Below are positions 1,262 to 62,210 of a DNA stretch of 64,000 bases, piece after piece. Both the position numbers and the translations under genes were made by a program. Position 1 is the stretch's first letter, and each line of letters opens with the position of its first letter. This stretch comes from Escherichia phage LH01. Where the stretch lies: sequence record PP434429. One strand, 5' to 3'. The notes beneath the pieces were generated by a model that made no database searches, was not told where the DNA came from, and saw nothing but the letters and a program-made list of their open reading frames with translations.

Positions 1262-2074
1262 ATGATCAAAGAACAACTTTTGAAAGAAGCTCAGAACATC
1301 GAGACTTCAGTTGCTCTTAATAGTGTTTTCGAATCAGTAGAACTGTCTCCGGACGTTAAAGCTAATTTCAGCACTGTATTCGAAGCCACCGTTAAGCAGG
1401 AAGCAGTCAAACTGGCTGAATCTCATATCAAAGCCATCGCCGAAAAGGCTGAAGAAGAAGTTGAAAAGGCTAAAGAAGATGCTGAAGAGAAAGCTGATAA
1501 AAAATTGGCTGAACAAGCTTCTAAATTCCTGGACCATCTTGCAAAAGAATGGCTCGCAGAAAACCAAATCGCAGTTGATAAAGGCATTAAAGCTGATTTG
1601 TTTGAATCCATGCTTGGTGGTCTGAAAGAACTGTTTGTTGAACATAACGTTGTTGTTCCAGAAGAATCTGTAGATGTTGTAGCAGAAATGGAAGAAGAGC
1701 TGGCCGAACATAAAGAAGAAACCGCTCGTTTGTTCGAAGAAGTTACCAAACGTGATGCATATATCAATTACGTTCAGCGTGAAACCGCTATTAATGAAAG
1801 CGTAAAAGACCTGACTGAATCTCAGAAAGAAAAAGTTATTGGTCTGGTTGAAGGTATGGATTATTCTGACGCATTTGGTACTAAGTTAACTGCTATTGTA
1901 GAAATGGTTAAAGGTTCTACTAAAGAAGAAGCCGCTATTACCGAAAGTATAAATACAGTTGACAATGACGCTGCCGGTCTTAATTTTGTTGCCGAAGCAG
2001 TTGACACTACCACAACTCAGGTAGAACAGAATTCTAATGTAAGTTTATATGCGAAAGTCGCATCTCGTTTCTAA
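1262..2074 (+). CDS. 22: prohead core scaffold protein gp22
   Basis: 270 aa acidic coiled-coil-like protein between genes 21 and 23; TATAAATA late promoter just upstream. Confidence 0.9.
   Translation: MIKEQLLKEAQNIETSVALNSVFESVELSPDVKANFSTVFEATVKQEAVKLAESHIKAIAEKAEEEVEKAKEDAEEKADKKLAEQASKFLDHLAKEWLAENQIAVDKGIKADLFESMLGGLKELFVEHNVVVPEESVDVVAEMEEELAEHKEETARLFEEVTKRDAYINYVQRETAINESVKDLTESQKEKVIGLVEGMDYSDAFGTKLTAIVEMVKGSTKEEAAITESINTVDNDAAGLNFVAEAVDTTTTQVEQNSNVSLYAKVASRF
1948..1955 (+). promoter_or_regulatory. late promoter TATAAATA inside gene 22 (gene 23)
   Basis: Exact TATAAATA about 137 nt upstream of gene 23 ATG. Confidence 0.5.
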
Positions 2075-2091
2075 TTTAAAGGTTAACACAA

Positions 2092-3660
2092 ATGACTACT
2101 ATCAAAACTAAAGCTCAGCTCGTAGACAAATGGAAAGAACTGCTGGAAGGTGAAGGCCTGCCGGAAATCGCTAATAGCAAGCAGGCTATTATCGCTAAAA
2201 TCTTCGAAAACCAGGAAAAAGATTTCGAAGTATCCCCTGAATATAAAGACGAGAAAATCGCTCAGGCATTTGGTTCTTTCTTGACCGAAGCTGAAATTGG
2301 TGGTGACCACGGTTATAATGCTCAGAATATTGCAGCAGGTCAAACCTCTGGTGCAGTAACCCAAATTGGGCCGGCAGTTATGGGTATGGTTCGTCGTGCT
2401 ATTCCTAATCTGATCGCTTTTGGTATTTGTGGTGTTCAGCCTATGAACAGCCCGACCGGTCAGGTATTTGCTCTCCGTGCAGTATATGGTAAAGATCCTA
2501 TCGCTGCTGGCGCTAAAGAAGCTTTCCATCCGATGTATGCCCCAGACGCGATGTTCTCTGGTCAGGGTGCTGCTAAGAAATTCCCAGCTCTGGCTGCTGA
2601 CACTACCACCGTTGTAGGTGATATCTATACTCACTTCTTCCAAGAAACTGGTACTGTATATCTGCAAGCTTCTGCTATCGTAACACTTGATTCTGGTGCA
2701 ACTGATGCAGCTAAATTAGATGCAGAAGTTAAGAAACAAATGGAAGCTGGTGCACTGGTAGAAATCGCTGAAGGTATGGCTACTTCTATCGCTGAACTCC
2801 AGGAAGGTTTCAACGGTTCTACCGATAACCCATGGAATGAAATGGGCTTCCGTATCGATAAACAAGTTATCGAAGCTAAATCTCGCCAGCTGAAAGCTGC
2901 TTACTCTATCGAATTAGCACAAGACCTCCGTGCAGTACACGGTATGGATGCTGATGCTGAACTGAGCGGTATTCTGGCTACGGAAATTATGCTAGAAATC
3001 AACCGTGAAGTTGTTGATTGGATTAACTACTCTGCACAGGTTGGTAAATCTGGTATGACCCTGACTCCGGGTTCTAAAGCCGGTGTATTTGACTTCCAGG
3101 ACCCGATTGATATCCGTGGTGCTCGTTGGGCCGGTGAAAGCTTTAAATCTCTGTTGTTCCAGATTGATAAAGAAGCAGTTGAAATTGCTCGTCAAACCGG
3201 TCGTGGTGAAGGTAACTTCATTATCGCTTCCCGTAACGTAGTTAACGTACTGGCTTCAGTTGATACTGGTATTTCTTACGCTGCACAGGGTCTGGCTTCT
3301 GGGTTTAATACCGACACTACTAAGTCTGTATTTGCCGGTGTACTTGGTGGTAAATACCGCGTATACATCGACCAGTATGCTAAACAGGATTACTTCACCG
3401 TTGGTTACAAAGGCGCTAACGAAATGGATGCAGGTATTTACTATGCTCCTTACGTTGCACTTACCCCACTGCGTGGTTCCGATCCTAAGAACTTCCAGCC
3501 GGTAATGGGCTTTAAAACTCGTTACGGTATCGGTGTTAACCCGTTTGCTGAAAGTTCCCTGCAGGCTCCAGGTGCTCGCATCCAGTCCGGTATGCCGTCT
3601 ATTCTGAACAGCCTTGGTAAGAACGCTTACTTCCGCCGTGTATATGTAAAAGGCATCTAA
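2092..3660 (+). CDS. 23: major capsid protein gp23
   Basis: 522 aa; N-terminus and internal stretches match T4 gp23 (GGDHGYNAQNIAAGQTSGAVTQIGPAVMGMVRRAIPNLIAF...). Confidence 0.97.
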   Translation: MTTIKTKAQLVDKWKELLEGEGLPEIANSKQAIIAKIFENQEKDFEVSPEYKDEKIAQAFGSFLTEAEIGGDHGYNAQNIAAGQTSGAVTQIGPAVMGMVRRAIPNLIAFGICGVQPMNSPTGQVFALRAVYGKDPIAAGAKEAFHPMYAPDAMFSGQGAAKKFPALAADTTTVVGDIYTHFFQETGTVYLQASAIVTLDSGATDAAKLDAEVKKQMEAGALVEIAEGMATSIAELQEGFNGSTDNPWNEMGFRIDKQVIEAKSRQLKAAYSIELAQDLRAVHGMDADAELSGILATEIMLEINREVVDWINYSAQVGKSGMTLTPGSKAGVFDFQDPIDIRGARWAGESFKSLLFQIDKEAVEIARQTGRGEGNFIIASRNVVNVLASVDTGISYAAQGLASGFNTDTTKSVFAGVLGGKYRVYIDQYAKQDYFTVGYKGANEMDAGIYYAPYVALTPLRGSDPKNFQPVMGFKTRYGIGVNPFAESSLQAPGARIQSGMPSILNSLGKNAYFRRVYVKGI

Positions 3661-26272: not shown

Positions 26273-26301
26273 ATAATAACATAACCTGTACCAAAGTAAA
26301 C
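26273..26301 (-). promoter_or_regulatory. early promoter GTTTAC-N17-TATTAT with inverted repeat
   Basis: Arms TGGTACAGG 26261-26269 and CCTGTACCA 26285-26293 (9/9) flank the -10. Confidence 0.5.
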
Positions 26302-30298: not shown

Positions 30299-30328
30299 AT
30301 AGTATCACAACTCCACCATGTTGTAAAC
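30299..30328 (-). promoter_or_regulatory. early promoter GTTTAC-N18-TACTAT with inverted repeat
   Basis: Arms TGGTAGAGTT 30289-30298 and AACTCCACCA 30309-30318 (9/10) flank the -10. Confidence 0.5.
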
Positions 30329-32396: not shown

Positions 32397-32453
32397 TTAG
32401 ATTTCCTCAATTATCCATAGGAGCATTATAATCTGCTCCTGAGAGTTTGTAAA

Positions 32454-40992: not shown

Positions 40993-41184
40993 TTATTTCC
41001 TCAGATATTTTTTGACCATATAGTATTGGAATTCAAACATTCTTGAATCAATAACAAAAATTTGTTTTCTTGGGCATTCATTTAATCGTACAGCTGAACA
41101 CCCAAACGCAAGTTCATGATATTGTTTCTTTTCTATTTCTGAAAGGAAAGTTCTAAGATAACGGAAAAATAGACAGTTAATCAT
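40993..41184 (-). CDS. hypothetical protein (63 aa)
   Basis: ORF. Confidence 0.4.
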   Translation of the reverse strand: MINCLFFRYLRTFLSEIEKKQYHELAFGCSAVRLNECPRKQIFVIDSRMFEFQYYMVKKYLRK

Positions 41185-41186
41185 AA

Positions 41187-41435
41187 TTATTTCCTCAGAT
41201 TTTTCTTAACAACTTTCCAATCGGCTTTAAACGATTCAACATCAGAATGGTGAATCCAGAATCCTGCGCTTTCACCATCTTCGTAGAGTGGACATCCATC
41301 ACATTCTTCATTCCAACCCATTTCACGTAAAGATGTTTCAGCTTGTTCAAGGAGTTCAGCATCTTTATCAAGGATGTTGAAGTACCATTTGCCTTTAACT
41401 TCAGAGTCGTTAATGCTTTGGCGTTGTAATTTCAT
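41187..41435 (-). CDS. hypothetical protein (82 aa)
   Basis: ORF with promoter carrying a 10-bp inverted repeat. Confidence 0.45.
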   Translation of the reverse strand: MKLQRQSINDSEVKGKWYFNILDKDAELLEQAETSLREMGWNEECDGCPLYEDGESAGFWIHHSDVESFKADWKVVKKNLRK

Positions 41436-41471
41436 TTTATTCTCCGTTGCTTCATTTGTTTTGACAGGGTA

Positions 41472-41501
41472 ATAGTATCACACCATTACCCTGTTGTATA
41501 C
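41472..41501 (-). promoter_or_regulatory. early promoter GTATAC-N18-TACTAT with 10-bp inverted repeat
   Basis: Arms ACAGGGTAAT 41464-41473 and ATTACCCTGT 41485-41494 (10/10) flank the -10. Confidence 0.45.
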
Positions 41502-41863
41502 TATTTTATTCCAAAAATTTCTTTAATTTCTGCAATCACATCTCGAGCATTTTCCGTAGTCACTTCAAAGATGAGTGATTGTTTAGAAATAGACTCTGGA
41601 GATACCTCGATGAAGTGTTTAAACTCATCATCATAAAGCTCAAAATATGAACCTGGCTTACCATCAAAACCGAATTCAGTACCGTCTCGCATAGTTACAC
41701 GGGTTACACATTTATCATCATCATAATCTGTGTTCATGTCTTTTACAACAAAACTAGGACCATGAAGCTCAATCAAAGCCAGCATATCGGCGTTTTGTGG
41801 GCATTCATTGGCGAAGATAGCTTTACATTCTGGATTGATGATATAAGTTTTTCCAATTTTCAT
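41501..41863 (-). CDS. hypothetical protein, paralogue A of tandem pair (120 aa)
   Basis: Shares N-terminal IGK.YIINP...FANEC...HGPSFVV and VTRVTM.DGTE with adjacent ORF. Confidence 0.5.
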   Translation of the reverse strand: MKIGKTYIINPECKAIFANECPQNADMLALIELHGPSFVVKDMNTDYDDDKCVTRVTMRDGTEFGFDGKPGSYFELYDDEFKHFIEVSPESISKQSLIFEVTTENARDVIAEIKEIFGIK

Positions 41864-41895
41864 TTTGATTTCCTCTCATTTGTTTTGATAGGACT

Positions 41896-41925
41896 ACTAT
41901 AACATAGCCCTATCTGATTGTACAC
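41896..41925 (-). promoter_or_regulatory. early promoter GTGTAC-N18-TATAGT with inverted repeat
   Basis: Arms TAGGACTA 41889-41896 and TAGCCCTA 41905-41912 (7/8) flank the -10. Confidence 0.45.
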
Positions 41926-42311
41926 TACTTTTTAAAAGTTTTTTGCAAAAGTTTGATGATTTCGTCGACGTTGGTTTCATCTACGATACAATGGATTTTT
42001 GTTACACCTAAAGTTATACCTTCGTTAGTAGATTGAGGCTTTTCTAAAGTTACCTCAGTAAAGTATTTGAATTCTTCAGAGTAAATCTCAAAATACGTCT
42101 CAAGTGGGCCACCAGCCATGTATTCAGTGCCGTCTTCCATAGTTACACGTACCACACAGTCACCAGCACAATCATCACTTTCCATTTCATCTACAACAAA
42201 ACTAGGTCCGTGCTTCTCTATTAAATTTAGCATCATTACATTGCAACGGCACTCGTTAGCAAAGTCATCTTTAAATAAAGGGTTAATGATATAAGATTTT
42301 CCGATTTCCAT
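41925..42311 (-). CDS. hypothetical protein, paralogue B of tandem pair (128 aa)
   Basis: Paralogue of 41501..41863; own GTTTAC promoter. Confidence 0.5.
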   Translation of the reverse strand: MEIGKSYIINPLFKDDFANECRCNVMMLNLIEKHGPSFVVDEMESDDCAGDCVVRVTMEDGTEYMAGGPLETYFEIYSEEFKYFTEVTLEKPQSTNEGITLGVTKIHCIVDETNVDEIIKLLQKTFKK

Positions 42312-42340: not shown

Positions 42341-42369
42341 ATACTAACACATTCAGGGAAGAAGTAAAC
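42341..42369 (-). promoter_or_regulatory. early promoter GTTTAC-N17-TAGTAT
   Basis: Upstream of ORF 41925..42311; lies between gene 32 terminator and the ORF. Confidence 0.4.
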
Positions 42370-42392: not shown

Positions 42393-42418
42393 ACTCAAAA
42401 GGGAGACCGAAGTCTCCC
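42393..42418 (-). terminator. terminator after gene 32
   Basis: GGGAGAC-UUCG-GUCUCCC hairpin followed on minus strand by UUUUGAGUAU. Confidence 0.7.
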
Positions 42419-42424
42419 AATTTA

Positions 42425-43324
42425 TTATAGACCAGCTAACAGGTCATCGAGGTCGCCATCGTCAGAAGACGAGGAACTCATGAAGTCATCTTCAGTTTTT
42501 GCAGAACCAAAGGCTTCCATGTCTTTATCAAAATCGTCGAGGTCAGAAGCAACTTTATCTGCAACAGAAGCTGCTGCGGCTGCTGCACCACCGAGAGCGG
42601 CAGTACCAAGAACCTTAGCGAAAGATTCATTTAATTTTTCAAAGGACTTGAACTGGTCTTTAGCCGTCAAAGTAGTAAGGTCTACCATCTGGTCATATAG
42701 TTCTTTCTGGAATGCTTCGTCATTAATACGAGGAATTTCAGATTGACCCAAGAATTTAGATTCGTCATAGTTGCTAAAACCAGAAACCTGCTTAGCTTTC
42801 AGAACGAAGTTGGCACCTTCAAACGGGCAAGTAACATCAACCGGAGTTTCACCCATTTCGGTATCAACAGCAATCATTGCATTGATTTTGTCCCAAATCT
42901 TTTTACCGAAACGATATTTAAATACTTTACCTTCGTTATCTGGAGCTTGAGGGTCTTTAACAACCAGAATATTAGCCCAATAAGAAGTTTTACGTTTCAG
43001 TTGAGAATATTCAGTTTTGTTGGTATTGTACAGGTCATTTTTACTAATGTACTGACATACAGGACAAGAGTCGTAATCACCATGTGTAGAAGAGCAATTT
43101 TCAATATACCATTTACCATTTTTCTTGAAACCGTGGTTAACAAGAATTGCAAATGGTAGTGCGTCATCAGTTTTTGCTGGCAGGAAACGAATTACCGCTT
43201 GACCATTACCTGATGCATCTAGCTTCAGCTTCCATTCGCCTTTATCTTCTGAAGAGAAACCTTTGTTACCGTTCAGTTTAGCCATTTGAGCAGCGAGGTC
43301 AGCAGTAGATTTACGTTTAAACAT
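42425..43324 (-). CDS. 32: single-stranded DNA-binding protein gp32
   Basis: 299 aa; matches T4 gp32 ([35 protein letters not shown]); acidic C-terminal tail. Confidence 0.95.
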
Positions 43325-61362: not shown

Positions 61363-61438
61363 GCTAATTTCCTCAATTGATTAATGTTTTTGTAATCCAT
61401 GAGAGCATTATACTCTGCTCTCAAGAGTTTGTACAATT

Positions 61439-61667: not shown

Positions 61668-61697
61668 ACTATACCATAATCCTACCTTGTTGTAAAC
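61668..61697 (-). promoter_or_regulatory. early promoter GTTTAC-N18-TATAGT with inverted repeat
   Basis: Arms TAGGACTA 61661-61668 and TAATCCTA 61677-61684 (7/8) flank the -10. Confidence 0.5.
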
Positions 61698-62153: not shown

Positions 62154-62180
62154 AATGTTATCCTCATTTAGATAGGACTA

Positions 62181-62210
62181 CTATATCATAGTCCTACTTA
62201 GTTGTAAACA
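62181..62210 (-). promoter_or_regulatory. early promoter GTTTAC-N18-TATAGT with perfect 8-bp inverted repeat
   Basis: Arms TAGGACTA 62174-62181 and TAGTCCTA 62190-62197 flank the -10. Confidence 0.5.

Follow-up and report, generated by a model that had tools for sequence, protein, structure and literature searches.

Two divergent versions of the early gene frd.2 lie side by side in the RB69-like Escherichia phage LH01

Two adjacent small genes of Escherichia phage LH01 appear to be versions of frd.2, an early gene known from T4 phages, that diverged long ago and have been brought together by recombination, rather than the products of a recent duplication as had been suggested in the original prediction. 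In the account that we favour, to which we assign a probability of roughly 70%, copy B is the resident frd.2 and a mosaic, copy A belongs to a separate lineage, the two were stacked at PeSL-type sites and their products may act as early protein-binding adaptors. The window, by which we mean the whole stretch of 64,000 nucleotides that was analysed (sequence record PP434429), derives from an RB69-like (Mosigvirus) T4-type coliphage and the pair is found within the variable, hyperplastic interval between gene 32 and frd.

The order of the genes is 32 - B - A - frd.1 (DUF5417) - two small ORFs - frd - td and the same 32-to-frd synteny is present in T4, RB51, RB69 and G53. As all of the genes here are on the minus strand, the pair, which had been described as upstream of gene 32, is actually located immediately downstream of gene 32 and its terminator. 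The DNA is 99.5% identical to that of Escherichia phage LF82-1 and approximately 91% identical to that of Mosigvirus phages with one 'FRD2 protein' at the frd.2 position. The features of the locus, in the direction of transcription, are:

42425-43324, minus strand, gene 32, with the frd.2 pair directly downstream
42401-42418, minus strand, intrinsic terminator of gene 32 (GGGAGAC-UUCG-GUCUCCC then UUUU; terminator scan and intergenic RNA fold)
42341-42368, minus strand, early-promoter-like site before B (TTTACT-16-TAGTAT; pattern scan, fold dG -1.5)
41925-42311, minus strand, copy B, frd.2, 128 aa (Pfam FRD2, E 3.5e-33)
41864-41924, minus strand, putative PeSL-type cassette between B and A (TAG-TGTACA-17-TATAGT...GAGG-8-ATG; promoter scan, fold), with the -35 box TGTACA at 41919-41924 directly after the TAG of B and the -10 box TATAGT at 41896-41901
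41501-41863, minus strand, copy A, a rare divergent Frd.2-family gene, 120 aa (Pfam FRD2, E 2e-21)
41436-41500, minus strand, putative PeSL-type cassette between A and frd.1 (TAG-TATACA-17-TACTAT...GGAG-ATG; inverted repeat, fold, pattern scan), with the -35 box TATACA at 41495-41500 after the TAG of A and the -10 box TACTAT at 41472-41477
41187-41435, minus strand, frd.1 homologue, DUF5417, 82 aa (Pfam PF17438, E 8e-35)

The terminator hairpin of gene 32, which divides that gene from the frd.2 pair, is also present in G53, ATK47, ESh15 and RB69. At the other end the pair is followed by the conserved frd.1, which has 93.7% nucleotide identity to frd.1 of ESh15 and delimits the inserted cassette distally.

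The two adjacent ORFs of 120 and 128 aa that had been reported are intact (41501-41863 and 41925-42311, minus strand) and their designation as a tandem paralogous pair was correct in that A and B are true relatives, both members of FRD2. Against PF03197, for which the gathering cut-off is 29 bits, B scores 114.6 bits over model positions 2-96 of 96 and A 76.9 bits over positions 2-95, and both match phrog_622 (E 4e-38 for B and 4e-25 for A). A BLASTP comparison of A with B, run with compositional adjustment, gives 52 identities in 90 (58%) across residues 1-90 without a gap and the adjusted E value of 3e-33 means that the match is not one of low complexity; together with the Pfam matches it rules out a chance or low-complexity similarity, which the original prediction had named as one way in which it could fail. 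The motifs that it quoted (IGK.YIINP, FANEC, HGPSFVV and V.RVTM.DGTE) are all present. Its observation that the last 30-40 residues are strongly diverged was also borne out, yet the two C-termini are still homologous because both proteins match the FRD2 model to its last positions and share residues that are invariant in the family alignment (V101, N105, I110 and F117). A hmmsearch of all six-frame ORFs of the window with the family profile found no members beyond A and B.

The other way in which it could fail was for one copy to be a decaying pseudogene, and we give practically no weight to the possibility that either ORF is decaying or a chance ORF. In RefSeq the A-like ORF of ATK47 has no annotation, which might be taken as a sign of this, but both ORFs in LH01 are full-length, matched end to end by the Pfam model and preceded by a Shine-Dalgarno sequence at the correct spacing, and both give structural models with pLDDT values of about 85 or more. 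Copy A has a dN/dS of 0.10-0.12 against the copies of ESh15 and ATK47, a comparison of three variants across 8-10% nucleotide divergence, and copy B is conserved without change (100%) in 16 phage records. Purifying selection acts on both genes.

The age of the pair is where our results depart from the original prediction, in which a recent tandem duplication in situ had been followed by fast divergence of the C-terminal 30-40 residues towards a new specificity. The DNA has the form that such an event would leave, as A and B form a head-to-tail repeat with a period of 448 bp that spans the leader, part of the promoter region and the coding sequence, with 79% identity over 76 nt of leader and start region, and the N-terminal halves of the proteins are 58% identical. 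However the N-terminal domains have a dS of 1.19 (dN/dS 0.28) and synonymous sites are saturated in the remainder, therefore the pair is not a recent duplication; recent tandem duplicates would have a low dS and be each other's closest relatives, and neither is the case for A and B. The N-terminal core of B is 96% identical to RB51 and not to A, the C-terminus of A is of a type found in single-copy genes of other phages, ATK47 and ESh15 carry the two genes in the opposite order, A is flanked by hairpin elements that differ in type and the trees of the two domains are incongruent. Taken together this leaves a recent duplication unsupported and, in our estimation, highly improbable, and is consistent with two old divergent versions of frd.2.

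The nearest relative of B is the frd.2 of RB51, with tblastn identities of 90-92% (aa) to RB51-type frd.2 and 74-77% to RB69-type frd.2. This similarity is unevenly distributed along the gene, with codons 1-88 being 96% identical to RB51 at the nucleotide level (dS 0.08) and codons 89-128 being 95-97% identical to G53/ATK47 (dS 0-0.04). Breakpoints placed with a 30-nt sliding identity profile delimit a centre of RB51/Tequatrovirus type at approximately 42066-42275 (codons ~13-82) between two ends of Mosigvirus type. Judged by its sequence, B is the resident Mosigvirus frd.2 with an RB51-type patch of approximately 210 nt in its N-terminal domain.

Copy A has a different and much narrower distribution. 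Copies with 99% identity or more are found in 16 phage records and copies with 90-94% in 5, identity being less than 71% elsewhere. Of the ~216 records that have a frd.2 like that of B or RB69 (identity of 60% or more) only some 21 carry A, and an exhaustive search of representative proteins with A recovered only 25 clusters. It has a short linker and an 'NA.DVIAEIKEIFG' C-terminus, a type that is rare among E. coli T-even phages and common in more distant members of the family. Outside of its own lineage the nearest relatives of A are the frd.2 of T4_ev151, with 70% identity over the N-terminal 91 residues, and P0003, the sole frd.2 of the T4-like contig L011, which is 68% identical over its full length and has the same C-terminus type. 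This type also occurs in the Vequintavirinae (rV5-like) protein P0037, and since it is shared with P0003 and the Vequintavirinae protein the C-terminal difference between A and B was inherited and did not arise after a duplication. In T4_ev151 and ZCEC15 an A-like N-terminal domain is joined to the canonical C-terminus. Two of the proteins among the 25 clusters, P0040 and P0057, were discarded as long repetitive proteins with spurious summed-score matches. By all appearances A is a separate, old and rare allelic lineage of frd.2.

Two divergent versions of a gene in one genome could also descend from an ancient tandem duplication in the ancestor of the 'HGPSFVV' branch, with birth-and-death loss in most lineages and retention of both copies in LH01. 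Ancient duplication with differential loss would leave a pattern similar to that of stacking, and in neighbour-joining trees (without bootstrap, from domains of 26-103 columns) the A clade is sister to the B/Mosigvirus clade in the N-terminal domain, with T4-type Frd.2 apart. Two or three family members are also found at the frd.2 locus in the Gaprivervirus EAWsc9 and the Vequintavirinae phage A5-4. In total some 80 phage records have more than one FRD2 match. The C-terminal tree, on the other hand, places A with distant phages, and the small share of frd.2-bearing records that carry A, the difference in gene order between the two kinds of doublet (32-A-frd.2 with a degraded junction in ATK47 and ESh15) and the exact location of the junctions in PeSL-type elements all count against this history. 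These points would also be compatible with an old duplication and a later phase of shuffling. We consider an ancient duplication unlikely overall and prefer the stacking of two separately evolved alleles.

The original prediction gave each gene a separate promoter containing an inverted repeat and the first half of this was upheld, as promoter-like sites, identified by their match to the consensus, precede both genes, whereas of the two only the promoter of A contains a stable inverted repeat. No hairpin was found in the promoter of B (fold dG -1.5), which has 93-100% identity to the promoter that precedes frd.2 in the Mosigvirus G53 and scores below the generic E. coli threshold in the promoter scan. 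In the element between B and A a hairpin (41887-41914) extends across the spacer and the -10 box (dG -16.0 kcal/mol, z -4.3). From the hairpin to the ATG this element is 100% identical to the one after frd.2 in ESh15, where it drives a 22-aa mini-ORF, it is near-identical in G53, ATK47 and RB69, and its stem type recurs in LH01 at 61668-61696 and 62180-62208. The element between A and frd.1 has a hairpin at 41464-41494 that likewise spans the spacer and the -10 box (dG -19.1, z -3.8), its promoter is predicted to serve frd.1, and its stem is of the T4/RB51 sequence type and not the Mosigvirus type.

In total 8 sites that combine a promoter with a hairpin of dG -12 or lower were found in the window, all of them on the early (minus) strand. 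The leader motif TACCCTRTCAA was present at the level expected by chance as a genome-wide repeat (30 found against 31 expected); the repeated unit is the promoter with its hairpin and not the leader string. The insertion of A, the reversed order in ATK47 and ESh15 and the alternative mini-ORF all have their junctions within promoter/hairpin elements. Both elements flanking A have the layout of a PeSL (stop codon, -35 box, -10 box at ~17 nt, Shine-Dalgarno and ATG), contain a stem-loop and belong to a genomic repeat found at indels. By analogy with the published cassettes, which mediate gene shuffling in T4-like phages (PMC2839356, PMC4122927), we interpret them as PeSL cassettes with putative promoter/terminator activity.

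These observations suggest the following account. The central ~210 nt of B have been replaced by the allele of RB51-type Tequatrovirus phages. Copy A, which appears to sit as an autonomous cassette between two PeSL-type elements, was most likely placed beside B by recombination between co-infecting phages at short conserved promoter/leader sequences, and we infer that the pair arose by this 'allele stacking' in place of local duplication and divergence. Each gene has a good ribosome-binding site and would be transcribed from an early promoter of the sigma-70 type, and if the hairpins after B and after A behave as published PeSLs do they should attenuate read-through, therefore each gene would be expected to form an independent early transcription unit.

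In respect of function, the AF2 models of A and B (pLDDT 88.3 and 84.7 respectively) have the same predicted order of secondary structure elements, namely strand, helix, helix, strand, strand, strand, short helix, strand, linker and C-terminal helix. Residues 1-88 are predicted to form a FeoA/SH3-like ('LSm-like') barrel of five strands into which two helices are inserted, followed by what is modelled as a flexible linker (AF2 confidence below 50 at residues 92-102 of B) and a short C-terminal strand-helix module. This architecture agrees with that published for T4 Frd.2, for which an LSm-like N-terminal domain was predicted as part of a GoF/MotB.1/Frd.2 family (Kim et al. 2025, PMC12152347). 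A Foldseek search with the models matched 62 uncharacterised phage proteins, GoF among them, and by sequence no relative of solved structure was found below E 0.06. The only match to defence or anti-defence annotation (PADLOC) was at chance level (SduA, E 0.02).

The LSm-like prediction raises the question as to whether A and B could be LSm/Hfq-like RNA-binding modulators of the stability or translation of early phage mRNA, a role that has been proposed for the GoF/MotB.1/Frd.2 family. There are links of structure and of weak sequence similarity (PHROG goF, E 0.004) between B or A and GoF, and a reporter RNA with the gene 41 leader was stabilised by GoF(D25Y) (PMC12152347). In that study wild-type GoF and MotB.1 were without effect, the activity being seen only with the gain-of-function mutant, which was predicted to have a more positive surface. 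Neither A nor B matches the Pfam LSM domain, and they have neither an Sm-type motif nor close structural similarity to Sm-Hfq proteins. Both are acidic (pI 4.55 for A and 4.42 for B, family median 4.46) with net charges of -10 and -13, which makes basic RNA-binding faces less probable, and the acidity of the entire family makes Hfq-type direct binding of RNA seem less likely. RNA binding is thus doubtful in our view, and charge and fold class lead us to favour protein binding, with low confidence. At a similarly low level of confidence we propose that during early infection the two proteins may serve as adaptors to a host or phage protein. In this scheme the barrel and the C-terminal module could be exchanged as units, and as such two carried versions would widen the range of partners. 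The published data on frd.2 in T4 are in conflict, as amber mutants plate normally (PMC12152347) and a CRISPRi-ART screen singled out frd.2 as the sole gene of unknown function with a fitness effect in that phage (PMC11879866).

A broader and rather speculative reading, which we think improbable, is that Frd.2 proteins are arms-race effectors built from two exchangeable modules, that the pair lets the phage counter a variable host target or a defence with two specificities and that PeSL elements are the vehicle. The original prediction had likewise pointed to specificity-determining proteins such as inhibitors of variable host targets, a role with which the high allelic diversity and the recurrence of multi-copy arrays would be compatible. 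The modules seem to have been exchanged separately, as in the RB51 patch of B and the T4_ev151 chimera, arrays of two or three genes appear to have arisen repeatedly and independently (in two orders in Mosigvirus, in Gaprivervirus and in Vequintavirinae) and whole genes may have moved between unrelated phage subfamilies. The finding itself is largely ordinary, since it concerns two old versions of the known early gene frd.2 that probably recombined and not a recent duplication, and no new kind of system is revealed. The doublets, chimeras and cassette junctions nevertheless portray frd.2 as a two-module gene under purifying selection that is apparently traded at promoter-hairpin cassettes, the natural variants offer a ready set for probing what each module binds, and the locus would illustrate cleanly how PeSL-type shuffling can act on genes that are homologous.

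T4-like phages in general have a conserved frd.2 and the closest comparison is with Frd.2 of T4, which belongs to the same Pfam family (PF03197), occupies the same 32-to-frd.1/frd locus and is of the same size as A and B. It has the same predicted organisation of barrel (residues 1-88), linker and C-terminal module with the same weak resemblance to FeoA, and its C-terminus is almost identical to the canonical one of B (GVTKIHCIVDE.NVDEII.LL.KTFKK). However T4 has one copy where LH01 has two, its N-terminal domain is only ~30-40% identical to those of A and B, and A differs in its shorter linker and other C-terminus type. The PeSLs are the closest known system for the elements flanking A, in both of which the -35 box comes directly after the stop codon of the preceding gene, the promoter is of the type TTTACW-N17-TAYWAT, the PeSL consensus of the T4/PST group (Comeau et al. 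[quoted passage not shown] They are also repeated on the early strand of the genome, and the region in which they lie is hyperplastic, with insertions, replacements and changes of order between close relatives at the elements themselves. Promoter/terminator activity and mini-circle formation have been shown for the PeSLs of RB49 and phi1 (Arbiol et al. 2010, PMC2839356) whereas the elements of LH01 are known from sequence alone, the published cassettes swap unrelated ORFans whereas those of LH01 would have stacked two homologous genes, and the promoter before B differs in being without a stem-loop. For the proteins themselves, the closest known systems also include FeoA/SH3-like small barrels (e.g. 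PDB 6e55) and the Tudor-like RNA-polymerase-binding domains of CarD and the UvrD C-terminus.

The tandem pair beside gene 32 is real, and it consists of two members of a known gene family whose arrangement is explained by known recombination cassettes. Every gene here lies on the minus strand, in the plus-coordinate order td, frd, two small ORFs, frd.1 (DUF5417), copy A, copy B, gene 32 and 59, so that the pair, described in the original prediction as upstream of gene 32, in fact follows that gene and its terminator in transcription:

42401-42418, minus strand: gene 32 terminator with a UUCG loop, preceding the pair in the direction of transcription
41925-42311, minus strand: B, intact ORF of 128 aa
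41501-41863, minus strand: A, intact ORF of 120 aa

Over the 2.7 kb around the pair, identity reaches 99.5% with Escherichia phage LF82-1 and its siblings and about 91% with RB69-like phages (Mosigvirus), in which a single 'FRD2 protein' gene occupies this position. As the interval reads 32, (frd.3 or ORF245c), frd.2, frd.1, frd in T4, RB51 and RB69, A and B represent two frd.2-family genes within the known variable 32-frd interval. A 63-aa ORF between frd.1 and an 81-aa ORF (40993-41184, minus strand), with no match in Pfam or PHROG, is a further indel within this interval; the LF82 phages have it, G53 does not, and the homologous match of phiEC1 and Mizar ends at about 41177.

BLASTP aligned A with B over residues 1-90 with no gap, at 52/90 identities (E 3e-33), and every motif originally quoted for the conserved N-terminal half was found. 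With a period of 448 bp, the DNA repeat runs through the leader into the promoter region. The predicted divergence of the C-terminal 30-40 aa holds in pairwise comparison, where they appear unrelated, but homology persists there, since A (E 2e-21) and B (E 3.5e-33) both match the Pfam FRD2 model (PF03197) up to its last positions and V101, N105, I110 and F117 do not vary across an alignment of 23 family sequences. When every ORF of the window was searched with the family profile, no third member emerged. B contains five cysteines and A three, among them the one in the FANEC motif that both copies have and one immediately ahead of the V.RVTM strand; in the wider family they are not strictly conserved. 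Metal-related SH3 domains (FeoA, DtxR/IdeR) are among the best structural neighbours of both copies.

The duplication had been taken to be recent, which codon comparison by Nei-Gojobori contradicts: codons 1-88 of A and B share 67% nucleotide identity with a dS of 1.19 and a dN/dS of 0.28, and past codon 88 synonymous sites are saturated. Neither intact copy is a decaying pseudogene, and the dN/dS of 0.10-0.12 between A and the A-like genes of the Mosigvirus phages ESh15 and ATK47 (90-94% amino acid identity) indicates that A is functional and under purifying selection.

By sequence, A belongs to a separate and rare Frd.2 lineage. A tblastn search against 50,697 phage records found it at 99% identity or more in 16 records, at 90-94% in five, at 66-70% over the N-terminal part in two and below 60% in all others; for B- or RB69-like frd.2, at or above 60% identity, the figure is approximately 216 phage records. 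The metagenomic FRD2-family protein P0003 is 68% identical to A over its full length including the C-terminus and is encoded by the sole FRD2 gene of its contig, in the order 32 - FRD2 - frd.1. T4_ev151 and ZCEC15 carry a single frd.2 combining an A-like N-terminal domain (70%) with the canonical C-terminus, which is unchanged in T4, RB51, RB69 and B. In separate neighbour-joining trees of the two domains, built without bootstrap, the barrel tree pairs the A clade with the B/Mosigvirus clade as sisters, and in the C-terminal tree A groups with P0003, the Vequintavirinae protein P0037 and more distant members and B with T4, an incongruence which shows that the two domains were exchanged independently. 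The A-like gene of ATK47 (L004, NC_055708, 1501-1863; 120 aa, 90% identical to A) is unannotated in the RefSeq/GenBank records, as is that of ATK48, the feature table passing from the gene 32 terminator to frd.2.

B itself is the frd.2 resident in Mosigvirus, its barrel domain bearing a patch of Tequatrovirus sequence, as switches of identity along the gene show. Codons 1-88 are 96.2% identical to RB51 frd.2 (dS 0.08) and 75% to Mosigvirus G53 (dS 0.96), whereas over codons 89-128 identity is 95-97% with G53 and ATK47 (dS 0-0.04) and 79% with RB51 (dS 1.17). A 30-nt sliding identity comparison placed the breakpoints as follows:

42545-42276, minus strand: Mosigvirus-like (93-100%), promoter and first ~36 nt of B
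~42275-42066, minus strand: RB51-like (93-100%), central part of B
42065-41864, minus strand: Mosigvirus-like again (90-100%)

Other phages arrange the family differently. ESh15 and ATK47 have the order 32 - A-like - frd.2 - frd.1, the reverse of the window, with a spacer of 31-35 nt that keeps a remnant of -35 box and leader and lacks the hairpin and -10 box. EAWsc9 (Gaprivervirus) has two members with frd.3 between them, and a gene annotated as a PemK/MazF-family toxin adjoins frd in the same interval. The second FRD2 gene of EAWsc9 (L010, 3213-3644) carries a 23-residue unit, DGDAPVDTQTIHVQVNHKNAAEV, tandemly doubled in the linker and C-terminal part; the unit is single in the close relative P0039. 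The Vequintavirinae phage A5-4 contains a trio:

A5-4 (L014) 1745-3122: three tandem FRD2-family genes of 124, 119 and 125 aa, family profile E 1e-26 to 2e-34

Nothing but ribosome-binding sites lies between these genes, and 3' of them is encoded a protein of 80 aa that shares 70% identity with RB69ORF245c, the frd.2 neighbour in RB69, from which we conclude that the family and its adjoining gene are common to Tevenvirinae and rV5-like phages. With B as query, 960 matching places were found in 879 phage records, so multi-copy records amount to at most ~9%.

AlphaFold2 models built from a 42-sequence alignment were confident (pLDDT 88.3 for A and 84.7 for B) and predict the same order of elements in both: a small barrel at residues ~6-87, in which a short strand and two helices precede four further strands, then a poorly ordered linker that is longer in B, and finally a C-terminal helix. 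This reproduces the fold of T4 Frd.2 predicted by Kim et al. 2025 (PMC12152347). Foldseek against predicted viral structures returned 62 matches at E 1e-3 or below, and those named are all phage proteins, nearly all uncharacterised, one being GoF; the B-goF link in PHROG is weak. Amber mutants of frd.2 plate normally (Kim et al. 2025, PMC12152347); in contrast, a CRISPRi-ART screen found frd.2 to be the only T4 fitness gene of unknown function (PMC11879866).

Our analysis establishes family, fold class, selection, mosaicism and cassette structure, and the products may be small adaptors in host takeover. We prefer protein binding to RNA binding by a small margin, with low confidence in either, given that the pair (pI 4.55 and 4.42) belongs to a uniformly acidic family (median 4.46 over 76 members), that Sm and Hfq proteins are absent from the best structural matches, and that the published RNA effect is limited to a gain-of-function GoF mutant with a predicted increase in positive charge, the wild-type forms of GoF and MotB.1 being without effect (PMC12152347). 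They are possibly specificity-determining inhibitors, as originally suggested: arms-race genes would be expected to show module swapping, recurrent arrays and the extreme allelic diversity that the barrel has among phages otherwise alike, although pairwise dN/dS is well below 1.

Each copy had also been credited with its own promoter and inverted repeat. Promoter-like sites do precede both, and the repeat is found before A and not before B:

42341-42368, minus strand: promoter-like site before B, TTTACT-16-TAGTAT, no hairpin (dG -1.5)
41896-41924, minus strand: promoter-like site before A, TGTACA-17-TATAGT, hairpin dG -16, z -4.3
41472-41500, minus strand: promoter-like site after A, serving frd.1, TATACA-17-TACTAT, hairpin dG -19.1, z -3.8

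A and B would each be transcribed early as a unit of its own. From hairpin to ATG (53 nt), the element separating B from A is identical to that after frd.2 in ESh15, where it precedes a 22-aa hydrophobic mini-ORF in place of A, and near-identical to those after frd.2 in G53, ATK47 and RB69. The stem between A and frd.1 is of a different sequence type, which T4 has downstream of frd.2 and RB51 upstream of frd.1. The mini-ORF (MFAPYIMAAVMLVCLYLLIKAC) is conserved with its own Shine-Dalgarno in frd.2-frd.1 spacers, and none of the records viewed annotates it. It is missing from the window, where the same promoter-hairpin element is followed by A instead. The spacers are:

T4 (L009) 1888-2025
ESh15 (L003) 2283-2422
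T4-like contig carrying P0003 (L011) 2677-2814
T4_ev151 (L006) 1897-2034

Of 28 promoter-pattern matches in the window 25 are on the minus strand, as are all of at least eight promoter-plus-hairpin sites with a dG of -12 or lower. Besides the two that flank A, these comprise six further sites of the promoter-early stem-loop (PeSL) type, with dG of -12 to -18 kcal/mol, the last two sharing the stem type of the element before A:

26273-26300, minus strand
30299-30327, minus strand
32425-32453, minus strand
61407-61435, minus strand
61668-61696, minus strand
62180-62208, minus strand

With PeSL-type elements on both sides, A forms a PeSL-ORF-PeSL cassette between resident frd.2 and frd.1. The simplest history would be a crossover between the element 3' of a Mosigvirus frd.2 and the non-allelic element 5' of an A-type frd.2 carried by a co-infecting phage, resolved further downstream; less probably, the copies would go back to an ancient duplication, followed by differential loss and then by shuffling. 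What is new is modest: the rare A-type lineage retained beside the resident gene, the clear intragenic recombination patch in B, shuffling of the family at domain level and its tandem arrays outside Tevenvirinae.

Published PeSLs comprise an upstream stop codon, a sigma-70-like promoter, a stem-loop, then Shine-Dalgarno and ATG (PMC2839356, PMC4122927), with the T4-group promoter consensus TTTACW-N17-TAYWAT (PMC4122927) and the stem-loop mostly between -35 and -10 or overlapping -10 (PMC2839356). The elements before and after A share this layout. In RB49 and phi1, PeSLs have been shown to possess promoter and terminator activity and to recombine with one another, which releases the ORF between them as a mini-circle (PMC2839356).
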